From an uncultured archaeon (GTDB lineage: Archaea > Asgardarchaeota > Jordiarchaeia > Jordiarchaeales > Jordiarchaeaceae), in assembly GCA_964510585.1 (NCBI GenBank), contig CAZECW010000202.1, positions 1 to 29,853 of the forward strand: DNA of 29,853 nt, given 5' to 3'. Under the pieces are notes generated by a model, which was not told the origin of the DNA, searched no databases, and was given only the letters and a program-made list of their open reading frames with translations. This document shows positions 17,451 through 26,386 of this stretch, piece by piece; within the stretch, counting starts at the first letter, position 1, and each line of letters begins with the position of its first letter. Position numbers and translations under genes: made by a program.

Positions 17451-18632
17451 TTAAAAATTAGTGTTAATTTTTTTGTGGAGAATGTTTTGTAAGTCTATTA
17501 CTTTTTGAGTGTATTTCGGCCAATATTTGTCCACGATTTCAATTTCCTTAACGGTTATTTCGTACTGTTCTCTTAGAACTGGACTATTGAGGTAATCTGC
17601 TAGGCTTCTTACTGATTCGATGTTTTCCTTTACTCTTTTATGTATTTTTTCTACGAGTAGTATTTCGTTTCTGGCCTGCACTAATCCAAATTCCAGATCC
17701 TCCAGCGAAAAACTCGGGGGGATTAAGTCGTCCATTTTTATTTCCGACTTTAAATATGATTGGAATTTTTTACCAGCCTCCTCCTCGCTACCCCAAAGAA
17801 TGGCTAAAATTGTAATAAAAGAAGCTTTTATGTGTTCGGCCTCTTTGGCTCTGCATTTAGCCAAGGTAATCAAATCTTGTTTTAATTGCCTAAAAACTTC
17901 AAATAGTACATTGATATTTTCCAAGCGGAAATCGAGTCTATCGCCGAAAGCGTTACTTAAATAATTGGCCAGGCTTCTTATATTGTTTCCAAAAACTACA
18001 AAGTCGTTAATTATTCTTGAAATTTGATTAGAGTAGTCGAAGATATCGGCCTCTCTTTCCACAGTTGAGAAAAAAAGGTTTAACCTTTTCTGTATTTCGT
18101 CCCAGTCATTTTTCTGCTTTTCAATCTCTTCTAGAAATGTATTTAGTACGCCTGATTTCAAGAAACCGGAAACCTTCCCGAGATCCTCCATTTTTTCAAG
18201 TGTATCTTTTATTGTTTCGATAAGTTGTGGGTATATTAACTCTTCTGTGGTTCTCACTTGGAATTTTAAGAACCTCAAATCAATGGCATCTGGGTTTATG
18301 AAATCTTCCAACTTACTTTTTTGACCTAAAATTTCAGAATAATTTGTAATATCAAAGGCAAGGACTAAGTTCGAGAAAAGGTCTAATCCCTTAACAATAA
18401 CCTCAATATAATCCTCCACAAGCAACACTAGTTTTGTAACAACTTCAGCAGAAACCTGGAAAGTTTCAACCAAAAATCCAAATTTATATTTTTCAAATGA
18501 CGCCCCAACCCTCGAAGAAACATTTTTGTCCAGTGAATGAATCGCAAAAACAATTTCTGTTATTATCTCGCAAACTTTTTTCAACAGGTTTTTTACGTCT
18601 ATGTCGAATTTTTGCAAACAAATTTTCCCCAC
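17451..18632 (-). CDS. Hypothetical all-alpha / coiled-coil-rich protein (393 aa)
   Basis: Long uninterrupted ORF in AT-rich DNA with amphipathic helical periodicity. No catalytic motif recognised. Confidence 0.75.
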   Translation of the reverse strand: MGKICLQKFDIDVKNLLKKVCEIITEIVFAIHSLDKNVSSRVGASFEKYKFGFLVETFQVSAEVVTKLVLLVEDYIEVIVKGLDLFSNLVLAFDITNYSEILGQKSKLEDFINPDAIDLRFLKFQVRTTEELIYPQLIETIKDTLEKMEDLGKVSGFLKSGVLNTFLEEIEKQKNDWDEIQKRLNLFFSTVEREADIFDYSNQISRIINDFVVFGNNIRSLANYLSNAFGDRLDFRLENINVLFEVFRQLKQDLITLAKCRAKEAEHIKASFITILAILWGSEEEAGKKFQSYLKSEIKMDDLIPPSFSLEDLEFGLVQARNEILLVEKIHKRVKENIESVRSLADYLNSPVLREQYEITVKEIEIVDKYWPKYTQKVIDLQNILHKKINTNF

Positions 18633-18753
18633 ATAACATCCTACATCTAACTAACTAAGAATTGGGTTACGTTGTGTTTGACCTTAAATATATAATTGTG
18701 CTTAGACTTATTAAAATGATTCCAGGAAATATGAGGCAATAAGTAATTAGTGT

Positions 18754-19959
18754 TTAGGCAGAAAAATCCCTTGTCTTATGCTCATACAACTTTGCTTGGT
18801 TGTTATGCCTTTTTTTTGGTGTTTTTGACTTGTTTATGTCTGTTTTTAGTGTTATTTGTGGTTCTTGGTTGATTGAGTATGTTTCGAGGGTTTGCTGCAT
18901 CTTGTTGACTACTGGCTGAGCTTTTATCTTTAGTCTCTTTTTTATTTGTTTTGCGAGGTTAACTGGGTTTCCAAATGTGGTGTATACTATTGATGGTTCA
19001 ACGGCGCTTACGTATTCTAGTAGCTGGCTAAAGTCCGCGTGGGAGCTGAGCGGAAAGGCAGCGTCAATATTGTAAGCTTGTTGCATGGAGAAAAAGAAGG
19101 AGCTTGTTGCAGCCCAACCGGTGCAAATGGCCACTTTGGGTGGTTTAGGAAGGTTGAAGTCCTTTGCCAGCCTTTCGGGAGCATTTCGACCTAGATAGGA
19201 GGGGGGTAATAAAAGTACGTACTTGTTTCCCTCAATAATTTCTCTCGCCTCCTCTGACTCTATCTCGAAGTACTTTCCCAGTCCGGTCTTGTACCGTTCA
19301 AAAATTCTATTAAACTCAAAAATTTGCTTGGGAACCAGAACGTCACAACTCAGTCCCTTAGATATTAGACTGGTTAGTTCCTGGCACTTTCCAAGAGAGT
19401 AACCTATAAGAGCAAGGGGAACACCATCGGAAACATTTTTCTCTGCATAAGCTAATATTTCGGAAATGATTTCCTCCCTCTCTGGAAAAATATATTCTTC
19501 TGAACCAAAAGTGGCCTCAATCACAAGAACATCACAATCCATGACATCTGCTTTCCTCTCAGTGATACTCTCACAAAAGTTGAGGTCACCAGTATAGCCA
19601 ATCAGGTGCTCCCCTGTATCAATTTTAAACTGTAGAGACCCCATACAATGCCCAGCGTCATAAGCCAAAACATTATACTTATCGGTTCTGAAACCGTGTT
19701 TCCTATCCATTAGAATAGTATTTCCCAAAAATCTTCTGTCTCTCTCCGTCCTCACCAATCTGGCTATCTCATGTGTAATGTTTGAGGCCCCAACCCTAAC
19801 ATTATCACTGGCTTGTATAAGACCAGAAATGTGGTCGCTGTGACCATGAGACACAAGTGCCAAGTTCATAGATTGAAAATCAGCGTTAGCTCTTGGATCG
19901 AGTAAAAATTTGAGACCCTCTGCCTCAACAACTAAACCCCTATCATAGTAGACTCTCAT
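18754..19959 (-). CDS. Beta-CASP metallo-beta-lactamase-fold nuclease
   Basis: SHGHSDH, AGHCMGS, YTGD, VIEATFG, GYSLGKCQEL, LSSHAD. ATG at 19959. Confidence 0.9.
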   Translation of the reverse strand: MRVYYDRGLVVEAEGLKFLLDPRANADFQSMNLALVSHGHSDHISGLIQASDNVRVGASNITHEIARLVRTERDRRFLGNTILMDRKHGFRTDKYNVLAYDAGHCMGSLQFKIDTGEHLIGYTGDLNFCESITERKADVMDCDVLVIEATFGSEEYIFPEREEIISEILAYAEKNVSDGVPLALIGYSLGKCQELTSLISKGLSCDVLVPKQIFEFNRIFERYKTGLGKYFEIESEEAREIIEGNKYVLLLPPSYLGRNAPERLAKDFNLPKPPKVAICTGWAATSSFFFSMQQAYNIDAAFPLSSHADFSQLLEYVSAVEPSIVYTTFGNPVNLAKQIKKRLKIKAQPVVNKMQQTLETYSINQEPQITLKTDINKSKTPKKRHNNQAKLYEHKTRDFSA

Positions 19960-20143
19960 AGGCAACAACCCTTATTAAATTAAACAAGAAACGCCTTTCT
20001 AATTTATTCCTTTAACCATTTTGTGGCTTAAAGTTCAAATGGTTCCAACGGGTTTTTCTACACTCGCAAAATTTTGGAGTGTTTCTTTAAATTATTTTTC
20101 GGCTAGGTGGATGCAACCCTTGAAGGTTCTTCCTCATTAAATC

Positions 20144-21136
20144 TTATGTATTAATTTTGAAAAGCACCTTGTTGTCTTTGAGGTGAGCGGTGACTTTTCC
20201 CAGTTTAATGAGTCTCTGCATGTAGCCGAGGGTGGCACCCTGAAGCATATAGTTACTCTTGTCCACGTTGTAGGATTCCGCGGTTAAATCTTCTAAGGTT
20301 ACACACTTCCTTTTCTCCAAAATATCCAAGAAAATTTGTTCCCTTTTCAGCTTTCTTTCTATGTCTTCCTGTAGCTTTTTGTATGGCTCATTTATGAGTG
20401 GGCCGTGGGCTGGAAGTATAAATTTTAAATCTAATTTTTGCAATCGTTCCAGTGATTTTAGGTATATTGAGATGTTATCAGGTATTTTGTTGTCTGCATC
20501 CAAGATTTCGCGTATCTTTAGTTTGCTCAGTTCTCTCCAACCGTATCCTACGAAGGTGGTTCCTGTTCCAATCACGTGGTCTCCTGAGAACAGAATTTTC
20601 CTATCCTCATCATAGAGACAAATATGTCCGTCGGCGTGACCCGGAGTTTCAATTACTCTTAGATTAAATTTTCCAAATCTGATTATTTCGTTTTCCTTAA
20701 CTTTTCTTTCTACATTTGATTCGTCTATTAAGAGGTTAAAATCCATGTACCTGTCTATCATTTCCTTTATTTTTGGCTCAAACTCTGAATAGAGTAGGCT
20801 GTTTTTGATGCTTAAAATGTGTTGGTGATACTTCTCAATTATTGCTGCAGCTTTATGTGAGGCGATAACAATCGACTTGGATGCATTCTTTATTTTTTGG
20901 TTTCCCCCAAAGTGTTCGACATGTTCATGGGTGTTTATTACTAGTGAAACGTCCTTCAAATTTCTACCTATCTCCTCTAGTTCTGAGACAATCACCTTCA
21001 TTGACCACGCGTCCCCCAATCCAGTATCAATTATGGCTGGCTCTTCACCTTCCAAAAAATAAACATTCAGCTCGGGAGTGGCAGGGAAGGGAAGCTTAAG
21101 CGTGAACATATAAATATCTTCAAAGATTTCCTTCAT
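20144..21136 (-). CDS. MBL-fold hydrolase, LACTB2/glyoxalase-II-like, paralogue 1
   Basis: IIDTG, THEHVEH, TPGHADGH, FSGDHVIG, LPAHGP, and a probable C-terminal winged helix. Confidence 0.88.
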   Translation of the reverse strand: MKEIFEDIYMFTLKLPFPATPELNVYFLEGEEPAIIDTGLGDAWSMKVIVSELEEIGRNLKDVSLVINTHEHVEHFGGNQKIKNASKSIVIASHKAAAIIEKYHQHILSIKNSLLYSEFEPKIKEMIDRYMDFNLLIDESNVERKVKENEIIRFGKFNLRVIETPGHADGHICLYDEDRKILFSGDHVIGTGTTFVGYGWRELSKLKIREILDADNKIPDNISIYLKSLERLQKLDLKFILPAHGPLINEPYKKLQEDIERKLKREQIFLDILEKRKCVTLEDLTAESYNVDKSNYMLQGATLGYMQRLIKLGKVTAHLKDNKVLFKINT

Positions 21137-21232
21137 ATGAACTCACCTCTCCACTAATAGAATTATAAGCATTTAATGGGTGAAAATAAAGATGCTTTAT
21201 TGATTAGAGCCTTCAATCTTTGAGCTCTCTTT

Positions 21233-22219
21233 TCATTTAAGCCTGTAGTAGATTTGGTTTTCTTTTATAACCTTCTCGATTTTTCCAAGCTCCAGGAGCC
21301 TATCAATGTAGGCAAGGGTTGATCCTTTGAGCAGGTGGTCAAGTTGTAATGAGCCGTACACTTTCTGGGTTAAACTTTCTAAGGTTTCCTCACCGCCTTC
21401 AAGGGTTTTCAAAATCATTTGCTCCCTCAAAAGTTTTCGATCCATATCTTCTCTGATTTTCTTGTGAGGCTCAGTGACAATGGGGCCGTGTGCTGGTAAT
21501 ATAAGCTTTATGTCTAAAGGCAACAAGCGTTCAAGTGAATTGATGTAGTGAGTAATGTTCCCATGTTCCACGTTTTTAACACCCATCTTACTTGCCACTC
21601 TATCAACTATCATATCTATAATGCCATAACCCACAAATGGAGTCCCTATGCCGATTACATGATCTCCAGAGAACAGAATTTTCCTCTCCTCATCATAGAA
21701 ACAAATATGACCAGGAGCGTGACCAGGAGTGTGGATGGTTTTAAGAGAGAATTGTCCGAGGTCTATGAGGTCTCCATCGCTTAACTGTTTTTCGACTTTT
21801 GTGGAGCTTATTGAGGATTGAAAGGCCAGGTATCTCTCAGCCACAGCCCGCATTTTAGGATCTATGTCCGCTTCCTTTACTGTGGCGAATAGTTGCAATA
21901 CAAAATCTGAGAAGTTTTGGATAACGTTTGCGGCCTTTTTATGGGCGGAAACTTGGGCTCCTGAATTCTTTTTTATTATTTCATCCCCTGCGAAGTGTTC
22001 TACATGTTCATGAGTATTAAGTATTCTACTAACGTCACTAAGTTTAAGCCCTAAACTGCCCAAAGAATCAGAAATGGCTCGAAAAGATTTCGGGTCACCA
22101 GGCCCCGTATCAATTAATGCGACTTCATCTCCTACAAGTATGTATATATTCATATCAGGGGTCCACGTGAAAGGTAGATTAATTTTTAGCCTGTAAATTC
22201 CTTCAACAATTTTCTCCAA
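21233..22219 (-). CDS. MBL-fold hydrolase, LACTB2/glyoxalase-II-like, paralogue 2
   Basis: LIDTG, THEHVEH, TPGHAPGH, FSGDHVIG, LPAHGP. Colinear with paralogue 1. Confidence 0.88.
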   Translation of the reverse strand: MEKIVEGIYRLKINLPFTWTPDMNIYILVGDEVALIDTGPGDPKSFRAISDSLGSLGLKLSDVSRILNTHEHVEHFAGDEIIKKNSGAQVSAHKKAANVIQNFSDFVLQLFATVKEADIDPKMRAVAERYLAFQSSISSTKVEKQLSDGDLIDLGQFSLKTIHTPGHAPGHICFYDEERKILFSGDHVIGIGTPFVGYGIIDMIVDRVASKMGVKNVEHGNITHYINSLERLLPLDIKLILPAHGPIVTEPHKKIREDMDRKLLREQMILKTLEGGEETLESLTQKVYGSLQLDHLLKGSTLAYIDRLLELGKIEKVIKENQIYYRLK

Positions 22220-22558: not shown

Positions 22559-24073
22559 TTATATTTCCGTGTATAGTTTGAAGGTGATGAGTAAATGCAC
22601 TGATCTGGGTCCGAAAGTAGTGAGTAGATAAATGTTTTCCCTGCTGCCCAACATTAGTTCTCCATTGTGATAGGGGACAGTAATATCTTTTTGCCCATAG
22701 GTGGTTGCTACGATGTGGTCTGGGAAATTGAAATCTGCTCTGTTTTCGGCCGCCATGACTGTGTGTAGTTTCATATCTGGTGACTTTCTCGTCTTTTCCA
22801 CAAACTCGTAGTGGAGTTGGAGAAAGTTTCCAGCCTCATTTTCATTGATTATTAGTGAGGTTGTGGTGTGTTTGGTTCGAATTTGAACCTCGCCATTAGT
22901 AAATTTGGGAAAATTTCTCCTCACACTTGACACTATCTCTTCTAGAGCCGGCTGGACCCATAACAATTGTGTTATGGAAAATGAGTTTAATAGTAAGTCG
23001 AAGTGAAGTTCAATAAAGCTCACACCGCTGCCCTTTATTTCGGTCTCCTCAGTAGGACCAAATATTTGGGTTATGTTGTATGGTTTGGGCAACCGCAAAT
23101 TTTTACCAAAAATCTCTGATTTCTTAGTAATATTTTTTAATTTATACCAGCGGTGCGCATTACGAAAACCCAATATACGTAGCAAGCTCCTCCAAGCCAG
23201 CACCAGTTCTTCGGTGGATTCCCAAAGTCCCCTCACCATCTGCGAAATTTCCATTGTGGGCGTAGCGCTTCCTATAAGAATTCTGCTGAATGAGTTCTGT
23301 ACTAGTCCCGGCTGGGAAAATAGTATTGAGAAAAATTTAGTGGGCGAAACTCCTCCAATGGACCGCGCGTCAACCTCAACCGCGAGATTAGGATGGTATT
23401 TTAAAAGATTAAAGTACTGCAACAAATCGGAACTTATGTCTCCGTTACTGATGATAACTTTGAGTTTCGGGTAAGAATGGAGGAAGCGGTCTATTAATCG
23501 GGGGTCAGTTAATCTCCTATCATTATCAGGTAGGTGCATGTTTCCCGCATCAATCTTCAGTGGAAAATTATGCGAAATGCAGATATCAACTAGGTGTTTG
23601 ATTTTGGGTGCATCCTCCACCAAATTTAACCCCAAGTAGCTTGGATAGATTGCTATTCCCGCAATGGAATCGGGAGTTGTCTTAATATATGAATTCAGTT
23701 CTTTAACAGAATTAGTATCAACGGGGTTAACCGATAAAATAGAGCTGAAAACTTGCTCGTTTAATTTTGCTACTTCAAGCACCCAATCATTGGGGATCCC
23801 ATAAGGTCTTCCAAGCTCCATTCCTTGGAGTAGAACCTTCTCAATTCCACTACACTGTAATTCTAAAGCAAATTCTCCGAGGCCAATCCTCCTATTGTAG
23901 AAGAGGGGATTTCCATTCCGGACTAGACTAAGCAAGTTGCGGACAGATTTCGGTAAGCTTAAATTTTCAAAGATTGGCCAGACCAGGCAGTCCACCATTG
24001 GAAAATCAAAAGGATTTCTAAACATCTCCCCAAATACTGGGCTAAAATCGGGGCAATACAGTCTCTCCAACAT
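22559..24073 (-). CDS. Fusion of a degenerate amidohydrolase-2 domain and a C-terminal YjbQ/UPF0047 domain
   Basis: The N-terminal ~310 aa follow amidohydrolase-2 order (NDWVLEVA, SVNP, GIAIYP, YPKLKVII, RILIGS). The C-terminal ~150 aa contain HTTTSLIINENE, GELMLG and GPR. Confidence 0.75.
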   Translation of the reverse strand: MLERLYCPDFSPVFGEMFRNPFDFPMVDCLVWPIFENLSLPKSVRNLLSLVRNGNPLFYNRRIGLGEFALELQCSGIEKVLLQGMELGRPYGIPNDWVLEVAKLNEQVFSSILSVNPVDTNSVKELNSYIKTTPDSIAGIAIYPSYLGLNLVEDAPKIKHLVDICISHNFPLKIDAGNMHLPDNDRRLTDPRLIDRFLHSYPKLKVIISNGDISSDLLQYFNLLKYHPNLAVEVDARSIGGVSPTKFFSILFSQPGLVQNSFSRILIGSATPTMEISQMVRGLWESTEELVLAWRSLLRILGFRNAHRWYKLKNITKKSEIFGKNLRLPKPYNITQIFGPTEETEIKGSGVSFIELHFDLLLNSFSITQLLWVQPALEEIVSSVRRNFPKFTNGEVQIRTKHTTTSLIINENEAGNFLQLHYEFVEKTRKSPDMKLHTVMAAENRADFNFPDHIVATTYGQKDITVPYHNGELMLGSRENIYLLTTFGPRSVHLLITFKLYTEI

Positions 24074-24119: not shown

Positions 24120-24527
24120 CTAGAAGTGAATTTCGTTTCTATAGGGAATAGCTTCTGTTCCACCCACCCCTTGGATGCTATAGCTAGCAATTGTAAGGGC
24201 CATATCTACCATTTCTTCTAAACTCATACCCTCCAAGTATCCCGTTATCAGTCCAGAATCAAATGCGTCGCCAGCTCCGATTGTGTCTATAATGTTTTCA
24301 ACCGGTATTTCCTCAACCACTTCGAATGTGGCTTTTAGAACCGCAGGCTCAGTTAAGATATCCTTGTAGAGGTTGAAGGGATGTTGGGTAGCAGGTTTGG
24401 CTCCTAGGGCTCTATACATTACGGGATATTCTGTAGTTCCTTCAATTTCCCGGTATCTATCTCCCTTTATGAAACTCCAGGCTGCGGGCCTCTCATCATG
24501 TTTCATAACTCTTTTTTCTTGAGCCAT
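24120..24527 (-). pseudogene. Chimeric ORF: SIS-domain sugar isomerase/deglycase N-terminus fused to a PfkB kinase C-terminus
   Basis: HPFNLYKDILTEPAVLKAT resembles the entry to a GlmS/FrlB-type SIS region. It is followed directly by IIDTIGAGDAFDSG...ASYSIQGVGG (PfkB signature 2). Both domains are mostly missing. Confidence 0.65.
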
Positions 24528-24807
24528 TTCTAATACCACTCCAGTATGGGTTAATGGACAAGCTCACCTAAAAATTTAAGCATATTGAAAAAGCTGCTCT
24601 TATTTACTGTGCTTCATCCTTTGAATGTAAAAAATTAGCCGATTTTTATCCAATTTTAATAACAAAAGATAAATTATTTTTTATATTAAAAATATTTAAT
24701 AGTAATATTTTTATTAAAAACATGTTTTTTTCCTGTTTCGAAACTAATATAAGTAACAAATTGGATAATATTGCATAGCAACACAATAAGAGGGTGCGGA
24801 TAGCATA

Positions 24808-25086: not shown

Positions 25087-25231
25087 CAATTTTTTCTTTG
25101 TCACTACTTTTATTGGACTTAGCTTTCCTCGGACTCAAACTTTTTTAGTTGAAGCGTAAAAAGAGAGTTTTACTTATTTTTGCTAAAAATTTAAATCTAG
25201 TTAGGGAGAAATACAATAAAAGCAACTAAAA

Positions 25232-26386
25232 ATGGAGGTTAACTTTTTGCCTATTGACTTTGGATTTACCCCCGAACAAGAAGAATTGAGGGCTTCGGTA
25301 AGGGAATGGTGCCAGAAAGAAATCGCACCCCTAGTGGAAGAAATGGAAGCCAAGGAAGAGTTCAACAAGGGTCTTGTCGCCAAATTTAAAAAGAAGTTTC
25401 TGAACATGTGGATTCCCAAGCAGTATGGAGGAACAGAAGCCGACACTGTGGATATTTGCATTGTGGCTGAGGAAGTTGGCTACGTTTGTGGCTCCTGTTT
25501 AACCCTCCTAGAGGTGGGAGGCTTAGGTTGTCTACCCATTGTAATTGGCGGAACTGAGGAACAGAAAAAGAGGTTCCTGCCACCCATAGCCAGTGGAGAG
25601 AAGTTTTATGGATTCGCTTTGACTGATGAGGGCCCAGGCTCTGATCCCGCCAATATGAAGCTAAGAGCCGAAAAAAAAGGTGACGAATATATCCTAAACG
25701 GAATGAAGCGCCTAATTAGCAACTGCGACATTTCAAACAGCATACTCACCTTTGCCAAAACCGATCCCTCAAAAGGAGCAAGGGGCATTAGTGCATTTCT
25801 GATTGATATTGGAACCCCGGGATTTGTGGTTGGAAAGAGGCTGTGGGGTTGGGGTATAAAGGTACACCATACAAACGAGTTAGAATTTCACGACTGCAGA
25901 GTTCCCGCAGATAGATTAATTGGCAAAGAGAATGAGGGATTCGTATACGCCATGAAATGCCTTGACCGAACCAGACTTGTTTTAGCTGCGGGCAATGTGG
26001 GAATAGCTAGAGCGTCCTTCGACATAGCGGTGAAATTTGCGCAGGAAAGAATAGCCTTTGGAAAACCAATATCGGAAAACCAGGCAATAAGCTTTAAACT
26101 TGCCGAGATAGCCACAGAAATTGAAGCCGCACGCCTCCTAGCCTACAAGGCAGCTTGGCTGGACAATAAAAAGGTTCGCCACACCACAGAAACCTCAATG
26201 GCTAAATGGTACGCCTGCGAATTAGCAAGAAAGTCCGCTGAAGCCGCAGTGAAAATATTGGGTGGCTATGGGTGGAGTAAGGACTACCCAGTAATGATAC
26301 ACTTACACGACGCCCTAGGATTCATTAACGCCCAGGGAACTACAGAAATACACAAAATGATAATTTCCAGAGCAATTTTCGACTAA
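25232..26386 (+). CDS. Acyl-CoA dehydrogenase-family flavoprotein with non-canonical active site
   Basis: FTPEQEEL, GSDPA, LNGMK, RIAFGKPI, ILGGYG. The usual YEGT motif reads AQGT. Confidence 0.92.
   Translation: MEVNFLPIDFGFTPEQEELRASVREWCQKEIAPLVEEMEAKEEFNKGLVAKFKKKFLNMWIPKQYGGTEADTVDICIVAEEVGYVCGSCLTLLEVGGLGCLPIVIGGTEEQKKRFLPPIASGEKFYGFALTDEGPGSDPANMKLRAEKKGDEYILNGMKRLISNCDISNSILTFAKTDPSKGARGISAFLIDIGTPGFVVGKRLWGWGIKVHHTNELEFHDCRVPADRLIGKENEGFVYAMKCLDRTRLVLAAGNVGIARASFDIAVKFAQERIAFGKPISENQAISFKLAEIATEIEAARLLAYKAAWLDNKKVRHTTETSMAKWYACELARKSAEAAVKILGGYGWSKDYPVMIHLHDALGFINAQGTTEIHKMIISRAIFD

Follow-up and report, generated by a model that had tools for sequence, protein, structure and literature searches.

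A glutamine-type clade of acyl-CoA dehydrogenase-fold proteins lacking both catalytic glutamates, found in an uncultured Asgard archaeon

Acyl-CoA dehydrogenases (ACADs) are a standard example of an enzyme family whose acid-base and flavin mechanism is conserved, and in MCAD the exchange of the catalytic glutamate for glutamine (E376Q) costs several orders of magnitude of activity. Documented departures from this scheme have each revealed new chemistry, namely the 3-sulfinopropionyl-CoA desulfinase, ACAD10/11 and the 1,4-dehydrogenating Ch1DH. In Ch1DH both glutamates are replaced (Asn241, Thr363) and a helix-E aspartate, Asp91, takes the gamma-proton, leading to 1,4-dehydrogenation; in other ACADs the residue equivalent to Asp91 is hydrophobic (PMC9293079). 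ACAD10, ACAD11 and LvaC are 4-phosphoacyl-CoA eliminating enzymes with a catalytic Asp, an HCMR motif and a kinase domain or partner (PMC12440821). Here we describe a gene at positions 25232-26386 (+ strand) of contig CAZECW010000202.1 (GenBank assembly GCA_964510585.1; the whole 29,853-nucleotide stretch is called the window below) from an uncultured Jordiarchaeia archaeon, whose product has the ACAD fold and neither catalytic glutamate.

Catalytic positions and the Q-type clade

The window gene encodes a complete three-domain ACAD-fold protein. Its open reading frame (ORF) is free of stops, translates into 384 aa from the annotated ATG, and spans the three ACAD domains PF02771, PF02770 and PF00441 at full length, each above its cut-off in a Pfam search. 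An AlphaFold2 model built from a 58-sequence family alignment had a mean pLDDT of 95.5 and superposed on 1ukw (T. thermophilus), 5lnx, 4l1f, 1jqi and MCAD with TM-scores of 0.94-0.95; sequence identity to canonical short/medium-chain ACADs was 35-42%. Residue numbers follow the 384-aa, ATG-start version throughout; in the 379-aa protein that we consider more probable (see below), Gln368 becomes Gln363.

HMMER alignments placed A-Q-G-T of the window protein on Y-E-G-T of 1ukw, 5lnx and 5ol2, with Gln368 at the position of the J-K loop catalytic Glu (MCAD E376 type). The other known base site, the helix-G Glu of IVD (E254) and LCAD (E261), was occupied by Thr247, and across the clade described below it held Thr, Gly or Ser, never Glu. 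We take this site to be the helix-G position of the T255E/E376G MCAD mutant as well as that of the LCAD/IVD base. A preliminary description, made from the DNA letters and ORF translations, had reported Gln and Thr at these two positions along with further altered motifs, and all could be read in the translation (TDEGPGSD, KRLISN and WGWGIKVHH for the latter).

Two database searches gathered 276 ACAD domains, 70 of which had Gln at position 368; we call the Gln368 subfamily "Q-type". A phylogeny, proposed as a check in the preliminary description, recovered 67 Gln-bearing proteins plus one truncated sequence as a single clade with an SH-aLRT support of 100 (maximum-likelihood tree of 120 rows). 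One further Gln-bearing protein, P0217, was placed elsewhere in the tree and had none of the rest of the signature, which consists of Glu94, Arg160, His212, Thr247, His317 and Gln368. The exact pattern E94-K159-R160-H212-T247-H317-Q368 occurred in 57/70 proteins with Gln368. Residue counts below compare 69 Q-type proteins with 170 canonical, Glu-bearing ACADs:

25511-25513, + strand: Glu94 in helix E; 69/69 Q-type, 22/170 canonical; the sole clade-specific invariant carboxylate
25709-25711, + strand: Arg160; 66/69 Q-type, rare in canonical ACADs
25865-25867, + strand: His212; 69/69 Q-type, replacing the Ser of R-x-S-x-T (Ser in 128/170 canonical)
25970-25972, + strand: Thr247 (ACC, within L-D-R-T-R-L), helix-G base position of IVD/LCAD; 61/69 Q-type, mostly Gly in canonical ACADs
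26180-26182, + strand: His317; 67/69 Q-type, Phe/Tyr in canonical ACADs
Residue preceding Gln368, + strand: Ala367; 61/69 Q-type, Tyr in 107/170 canonical
26333-26335, + strand: Gln368 (CAG), MCAD/SCAD catalytic Glu position (E376); 69/69 Q-type, Glu in 170/170 canonical

By alignment, Glu94 is probably equivalent to MCAD Glu99, a residue on the floor of the acyl pocket. His317 aligned with MCAD Asn325, beside Arg324 and Thr326, which are presumably CoA contacts.

Clade members came from Asgard archaea, Candidatus Alkanophaga/Alkanophagales, Methanolliviera, a metagenome-assembled genome (MAG) labelled Halobacteria, Chloroflexota and Deltaproteobacteria MAGs. The Q-type subfamily is monophyletic and has no name of its own within the acyl-CoA dehydrogenase fold; its members are labelled "acyl-CoA dehydrogenase family protein" in their sources. 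None of ten members tested reached the cut-off of any NCBIfam model; acryloyl-CoA reductase AcrC scored best, with 250-345 bits where 640 are required. Searched against the PDB, a clade profile retrieved canonical ACADs only and no solved structure of a member. Our literature searches (natural Gln replacement, beta-keto acid cleavage enzymes with ACADs, Asgard ACADs) returned no description of the clade. The fold and family are known, and the Q-type active-site configuration and clade are not described in the resources searched. The ESM Atlas returned generic ACAD clusters, with a "cyclohex-1-ene-1-carbonyl-CoA dehydrogenase" cluster at rank 3 as a weak lead. A related-locus search with a family alignment yielded mostly canonical ACADs (4/80 loci were Q-type). 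Tandem ACAD-ACAD fusions of about 770 aa headed the exhaustive search because the scores of both halves sum; considered as possible fusions of a Q-type and a Glu-type protein, they were rejected, both halves being of canonical types.

Conservation of the glutamine extended to the DNA level. Among 21 clade gene copies in the fetched loci, some of them duplicate contigs or tandem paralogues, the Gln codon was CAA 12 times and CAG 9 times, and CAA was used in the 89%-identical Jordarchaeum gene. Close orthologues (79-92% identical; source names Freyarchaeota, Freyarchaeum, Jordarchaeum or Lokiarchaeia) all had Gln and none Glu, a comparison that the preliminary description had also suggested; its view that a single-base error was improbable is upheld by the Gln in 69/69 clade members and the use of both Gln codons. 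Pairwise ratios of nonsynonymous to synonymous substitution (dN/dS) among four orthologues were 0.02-0.09 (dS was partly saturated, with the ratio far below 1), and the window gene is under strong purifying selection. In a sample of 151 genomes from the phylum, strict orthologues (E <= 1e-120) occurred as a single copy in 6/6 genomes of the window's genus and were not found in the remaining 145. Almost certainly, then, this is a real, conserved and selected clade that has neither catalytic Glu.

Cofactor, CoA and electron-transfer sites

In human IVD, FAD is contacted by T200, R312, Q323, G384, T409 and E411, and CoA by S174, D284 and R287 (PMC12369846). The equivalents in the window protein by alignment were S163, R273, Q284, G345, T370 and E372 for FAD, and S137, D245 and R248 for CoA; the mapping combined the precursor-to-mature numbering offset with the family alignment. 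Across the Q-type clade, T131, S137, S/T163, D/N245, R248, R273, Q284, G344/G345, G369 and T/S370 were kept (E372 was excluded from this count). Because these contact residues are conserved, both the protein's own isoalloxazine site and the adenosine site that it offers to the neighbouring subunit appear intact, and Q-type proteins are predicted to bind FAD and CoA thioesters.

The residues through which ACADs meet the electron transfer flavoprotein (ETF) told a different story. The ETF contacts of C. difficile Bcd include Phe155, a bridge between the two flavins on the si-face, and Glu198, which is salt-bridged to EtfA Arg243; their MCAD counterparts are Trp166 and Glu212 (PMC5691135). In a gap-free HMMER alignment block, Bcd F155 fell on Leu161 and Bcd E198 on Leu204, the latter encoded as follows:

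25841-25843, + strand: Leu204, at the ETF-docking Glu site (MCAD E212, Bcd E198); Glu in 122/170 canonical, 0/69 Q-type

Position 204 was thus Glu in 72% of canonical ACADs and 0% of Q-type proteins, and position 206 was Lys in 92% and 0%, respectively. At position 161, 92% of canonical ACADs had Phe or Trp, and Q-type proteins mostly Leu, Tyr or Ile. The spatial placing of residues 204-213 follows published ETF interface residues. The window protein has Leu at both the ETF-docking Glu site and the si-face aromatic site. This pairing is not a strict defining feature of canonical ACADs, because helix-G-type ACADs of the same genome also diverge in this loop. The absence of the docking residues suggests, without being decisive, that electron exchange between the Q-type flavin and ETF departs from the usual route.

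Gene context, proposed chemistry and rival functions

The genomic surroundings of distant clade members (41-49% identical) were informative. At four loci the Q-type gene occurred with a beta-keto acid cleavage enzyme (BKACE), SCP-x-type thiolases and DUF35/ChsH2 OB-fold proteins; three of the four also had a MaoC dehydratase together with an ADP-forming CoA ligase, and at three BKACE was directly abutted by a Glu-bearing ACAD (386 aa in locus L006, 418-419 aa in L090 and L091). This pair, the Glu-bearing ACAD followed by BKACE within 0-26 bp, was seen at three unrelated loci (L090 4807-6940; L091 1056-3198; L006 10754-12764) and looks like a conserved pathway module, on which we found no literature.

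Elsewhere, the Q-type gene separated the alpha-subunit gene of an ADP-forming acyl-CoA synthetase from its beta-subunit gene, adjoined a CoA-transferase and three other ACADs, or adjoined an enoyl-CoA hydratase and an SDR. In a Deltaproteobacteria MAG (L015, 5361-11728), a pair of 2-hydroxyacyl-CoA dehydratase/benzoyl-CoA reductase-like (HGD-D) genes flanked the Q-type gene on each side, with a GntR regulator and a branched-chain-type ABC transporter upstream of the block. In Chloroflexota (L003, 8001-10406), a tandem of two Q-type paralogues separated by 16 bp stood between valS and alaS. The same strand carried, upstream, genes of CoA biosynthesis (a coaX-like Pan_kinase and CoaBC) and ACPS; a CoaD-like CTP_transf_like gene lay beyond these on the other strand. 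This Chloroflexota context is housekeeping rather than catabolic. The common theme of the relatives' gene clusters is CoA-thioester metabolism.

With Gln at the catalytic Glu position, Q-type proteins probably carry out some CoA-thioester chemistry other than ordinary fatty-acid dehydrogenation. The best explanation in our view, held at somewhat less than even confidence, is a functional flavoenzyme that binds FAD and a CoA thioester, has given up both catalytic Glu positions and performs a non-canonical transformation. Acyl-CoA would be bound over the flavin in the usual manner, and catalysis would not be started by carboxylate removal of the alpha-proton. A different set of residues (Glu94, Arg160, His212, His317 and Ala367) has become fixed in the subfamily. 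One option would be Ch1DH-like, using an acidic helix-E residue, for which Glu94, one helical turn deeper in the pocket, is the candidate. A second option would be a net redox-neutral reaction of the lyase or isomerase type, the flavin passing no electrons to ETF; 3-sulfinopropionyl-CoA desulfinase and ACAD10/11 are precedents. The substitutions of Ala367 for Tyr and Gly254 for Gln are predicted to enlarge the pocket beside C-alpha and C-beta, and a pocket enlarged in this way, with Glu94 buried in it, points to an acyl group that is bulky or carries a polar substituent. Glu94 may itself hold a polar or cationic group of the substrate instead of serving as the base.

More tentatively, Q-type proteins might form a new catalytic class, with a reaction undescribed for the ACAD fold that is ETF-free and serves an uncharacterised BKACE/thiolase/DUF35 acyl-CoA pathway. 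Examples would be remote or vinylogous dehydrogenation, or redox-neutral elimination or isomerisation through Glu94 and His212. If so, this pathway would be common among the anaerobic archaea and bacteria of sediments. In metabolic reconstructions of the uncultured anaerobic hosts, Q-type genes are counted as beta-oxidation dehydrogenases, which is probably wrong; the clade signature provides a simple test separating them from ordinary ACADs and defines a tractable target for enzymology.

Several observations weigh against a non-canonical flavoenzyme of this kind. Among the loci compared, the window gene and its close orthologues had no conserved functional neighbour, and the pathway context therefore comes from relatives of 41-47% identity. 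Helix-G-type ACADs of the same genome also have no Lys206, and its loss is therefore not unique to the clade. Glu94 presumably corresponds to MCAD Glu99, which is non-catalytic there, and our mapping puts it about one turn of the helix further into the pocket than the Ch1DH base Asp91.

The closest competitor of the non-canonical reading, which we regard as unlikely, is an ordinary acyl-CoA dehydrogenase or enoyl-CoA reductase in which the C-alpha proton is handled by a water held by Gln368, by a substrate carboxylate or by Glu94. The full ACAD fold with its FAD and CoA residues, the beta-oxidation-like clusters of the relatives and the top NCBIfam similarity of the window protein (AcrC, 343 bits) would all be expected of such an enzyme. 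However, the AcrC score is far under the cut-off of 640, no conserved carboxylate occupies either known base site, the ETF-docking signature is absent, and the clusters already hold Glu-bearing ACADs. Such an enzyme would also conflict with the effect of the Glu-to-Gln exchange in MCAD.

Rather less probable is a non-catalytic or regulatory subunit whose partner would be a Glu-bearing ACAD, an arrangement known from the FadE26/27, ChsE4/5 and PimC/PimD heteromers. A candidate partner is the helix-G-type ACAD of about 418 aa: in the relatives' clusters the Glu-type ACAD abutting BKACE is a few kb or less away from a Q-type gene, and the window's own genome has an orthologue of that ACAD (58% identity; contig C181). 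The two genes are, though, non-adjacent in most loci and on different contigs in this genome, and the Chloroflexota tandems join two Q-type genes rather than a Q-type and a Glu-type. In the mycobacterial heterotetramers, the subunits that have no FAD are not known to keep FAD-site residues. The window protein keeps those of its own isoalloxazine site and of the neighbouring subunit's adenosine site, and the 29.9-kb window holds no other ACAD gene. The fixed pocket residues Gln368, Glu94 and Ala367 argue for a working active site, and the low dN/dS also speaks against a subunit of this kind. An active flavoenzyme is therefore favoured over a partner subunit. The preliminary description had offered non-dehydrogenase chemistry or a partner-dependent subunit; the data support what both imply, a protein other than a canonical alpha,beta-dehydrogenase, and lean towards the first, the second becoming less likely given the retained FAD and CoA contacts and the Q-type/Q-type tandems.

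Orthology to 3-sulfinopropionyl-CoA desulfinase, which the preliminary description had brought in for comparison, is highly improbable, and the resemblance is one of analogy only. Both proteins have the ACAD fold without the catalytic Glu (for the desulfinase, see PMC9293079), yet the window protein scored 203.6 bits against NCBIfam NF042439 (cut-off 600), under several dehydrogenase models, and matched the desulfinase structure 5af7 far down the list (E = 3e-46, versus 3.6e-85 for 1ukw). Further, the host is an anaerobic archaeon, and no genes of the dithiodipropionate pathway, the source pathway of the desulfinase, were seen beside the window gene. Although CAG and GAG are one base apart, a sequencing error or decaying pseudogene has next to no probability, because Gln is found in all orthologues and 69 clade members through both codons, dN/dS is 0.02-0.09, the reading frame is intact and one copy is kept in every genome of the genus sampled.

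The gene itself probably starts at TTG 25247 rather than at ATG 25232, giving a coding sequence (CDS) of 379 aa. Three orthologous loci start at a TTG aligned with 25247, and all four genes then have 379 codons; in this window an extra base brings the upstream ATG into frame. The ESM Atlas entry for the window protein starts at residue 6, and residues 1-7 were disordered in the AlphaFold2 model (pLDDT <50). The features of this region are:

25247-26386, + strand: probable true CDS, TTG start, 379 aa, of the same length as in orthologues
25235-25239, + strand: GGAGG Shine-Dalgarno-like box, 7 nt before the TTG, kept in 4/4 aligned upstream regions
25185-25196, + strand: A/T-rich box AAAAATTTAAAT, about 50 nt before the TTG, conserved in loci L093, L001 and L010

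The A/T-rich box resembles a TATA/BRE-like element and is a putative promoter; read in this way, it fits a window gene with its own promoter.

Upstream of the ACAD gene and divergent from it, three tandem metallo-beta-lactamase-fold paralogues (17451-22219, - strand), two of them of the Lactamase_B/ODP type, adjoin a 393-aa ORF that had no Pfam match. In this neighbourhood only these upstream genes were syntenic with an orthologue locus, that of the 92%-identical orthologue (L093), and the Freyarchaeum orthologue locus shared nothing with the window neighbourhood. Between the block and the ACAD gene lie a 504-aa ORF (22559-24073, - strand) with a weak Amidohydro_2 match and a C-terminal UPF0047/YjbQ domain, and a 139-aa ORF (24120-24539, - strand), perhaps a gene fragment, whose match to the PfkB kinase profile covers only the last 60 or so positions. 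Neither ORF is present in L093.

The window's own genome (3.78 Mb, 96% complete, Freyarchaeia/Jordarchaeia-like) has 16 ACAD-domain genes, with the window gene as the single Q-type copy. Three of its ACADs have the canonical YEGT, four have Glu at the helix-G base position, and eight are long forms of about 507-525 aa whose C-terminal tail is shared by one 385-aa form. This is an unusual expansion, with long forms on contigs C158, C29, C22, C196, C114, C89 and C98 and the 385-aa form on C38; the long-form C-terminal extension ends in a motif like A-T-Y-x-G-L-x-K-A-x-P-x-x-Y-Y-x-W-x-P-x-W. The genome also has six BKACE and nine HGD-D genes, and one EtfAB pair (contig C150), which lies beside a canonical ACAD.

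Comparison with known systems

Canonical ACADs such as 1ukw, B. subtilis MmgC (5lnx), C. difficile Bcd (5ol2) and MCAD share with Q-type proteins the three-domain fold and the FAD and CoA contacts. In contrast to them, Q-type proteins have Gln for the catalytic Glu, Ala for the preceding Tyr, no ETF-docking Glu/Lys and mostly Leu, Tyr or Ile for the si-face aromatic, and they carry their own Glu94, Arg160, His212 and His317.

The non-catalytic subunits of the alpha2beta2 FadE/ChsE and PimC/PimD enzymes resemble Q-type proteins in having the ACAD fold without the base, and Glu-bearing ACADs occur near some Q-type genes. Q-type proteins differ in keeping the FAD-site residues, in often having no adjacent Glu-type gene and in occurring as Q-type/Q-type tandems, and the window protein scored far below the cut-offs of the PimD and IpdE2 NCBIfam models.

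The 3-sulfinopropionyl-CoA desulfinase (AcdDPN7, 5af7) is, like the Q-type, an ACAD-fold flavoprotein without the catalytic Glu, and its reaction is not a dehydrogenation. As the NF042439 score indicates, the window protein is not its orthologue. The desulfinase has an essential active-site Arg84; in the Q-type clade, the N-terminal domain showed no invariant Arg. The ACAD10/ACAD11/LvaC group offers a further parallel, with atypical ACAD domains, polar pocket residues and elimination in place of simple dehydrogenation; the window protein differs in its Gln at the base site, in a translation that contains no HCMR string and in having no kinase neighbour.

Another departure from the canonical scheme is Ch1DH, an ACAD of anaerobes in which both Glu were given up (Asn241 and Thr363, versus Thr247 and Gln368 in the window protein) and helix E bears an acidic residue. 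Its equivalent of Asp91 in the window protein is most likely Leu98, the sole uniformly hydrophobic column at positions 95-99, an equivalence drawn from numbering offsets and column chemistry rather than from direct alignment. The window protein therefore has Leu98, Thr247 and Gln368 where the Ch1DH type has its helix-E Asp base, Asn and Thr. In Ch1DH the base Asp91 is followed by Gly. Glu94 of the Q-type lies one helical turn earlier, and Q-type proteins form a separate branch. Ch1DH is the best precedent for a possible relocated base in the Q-type clade.

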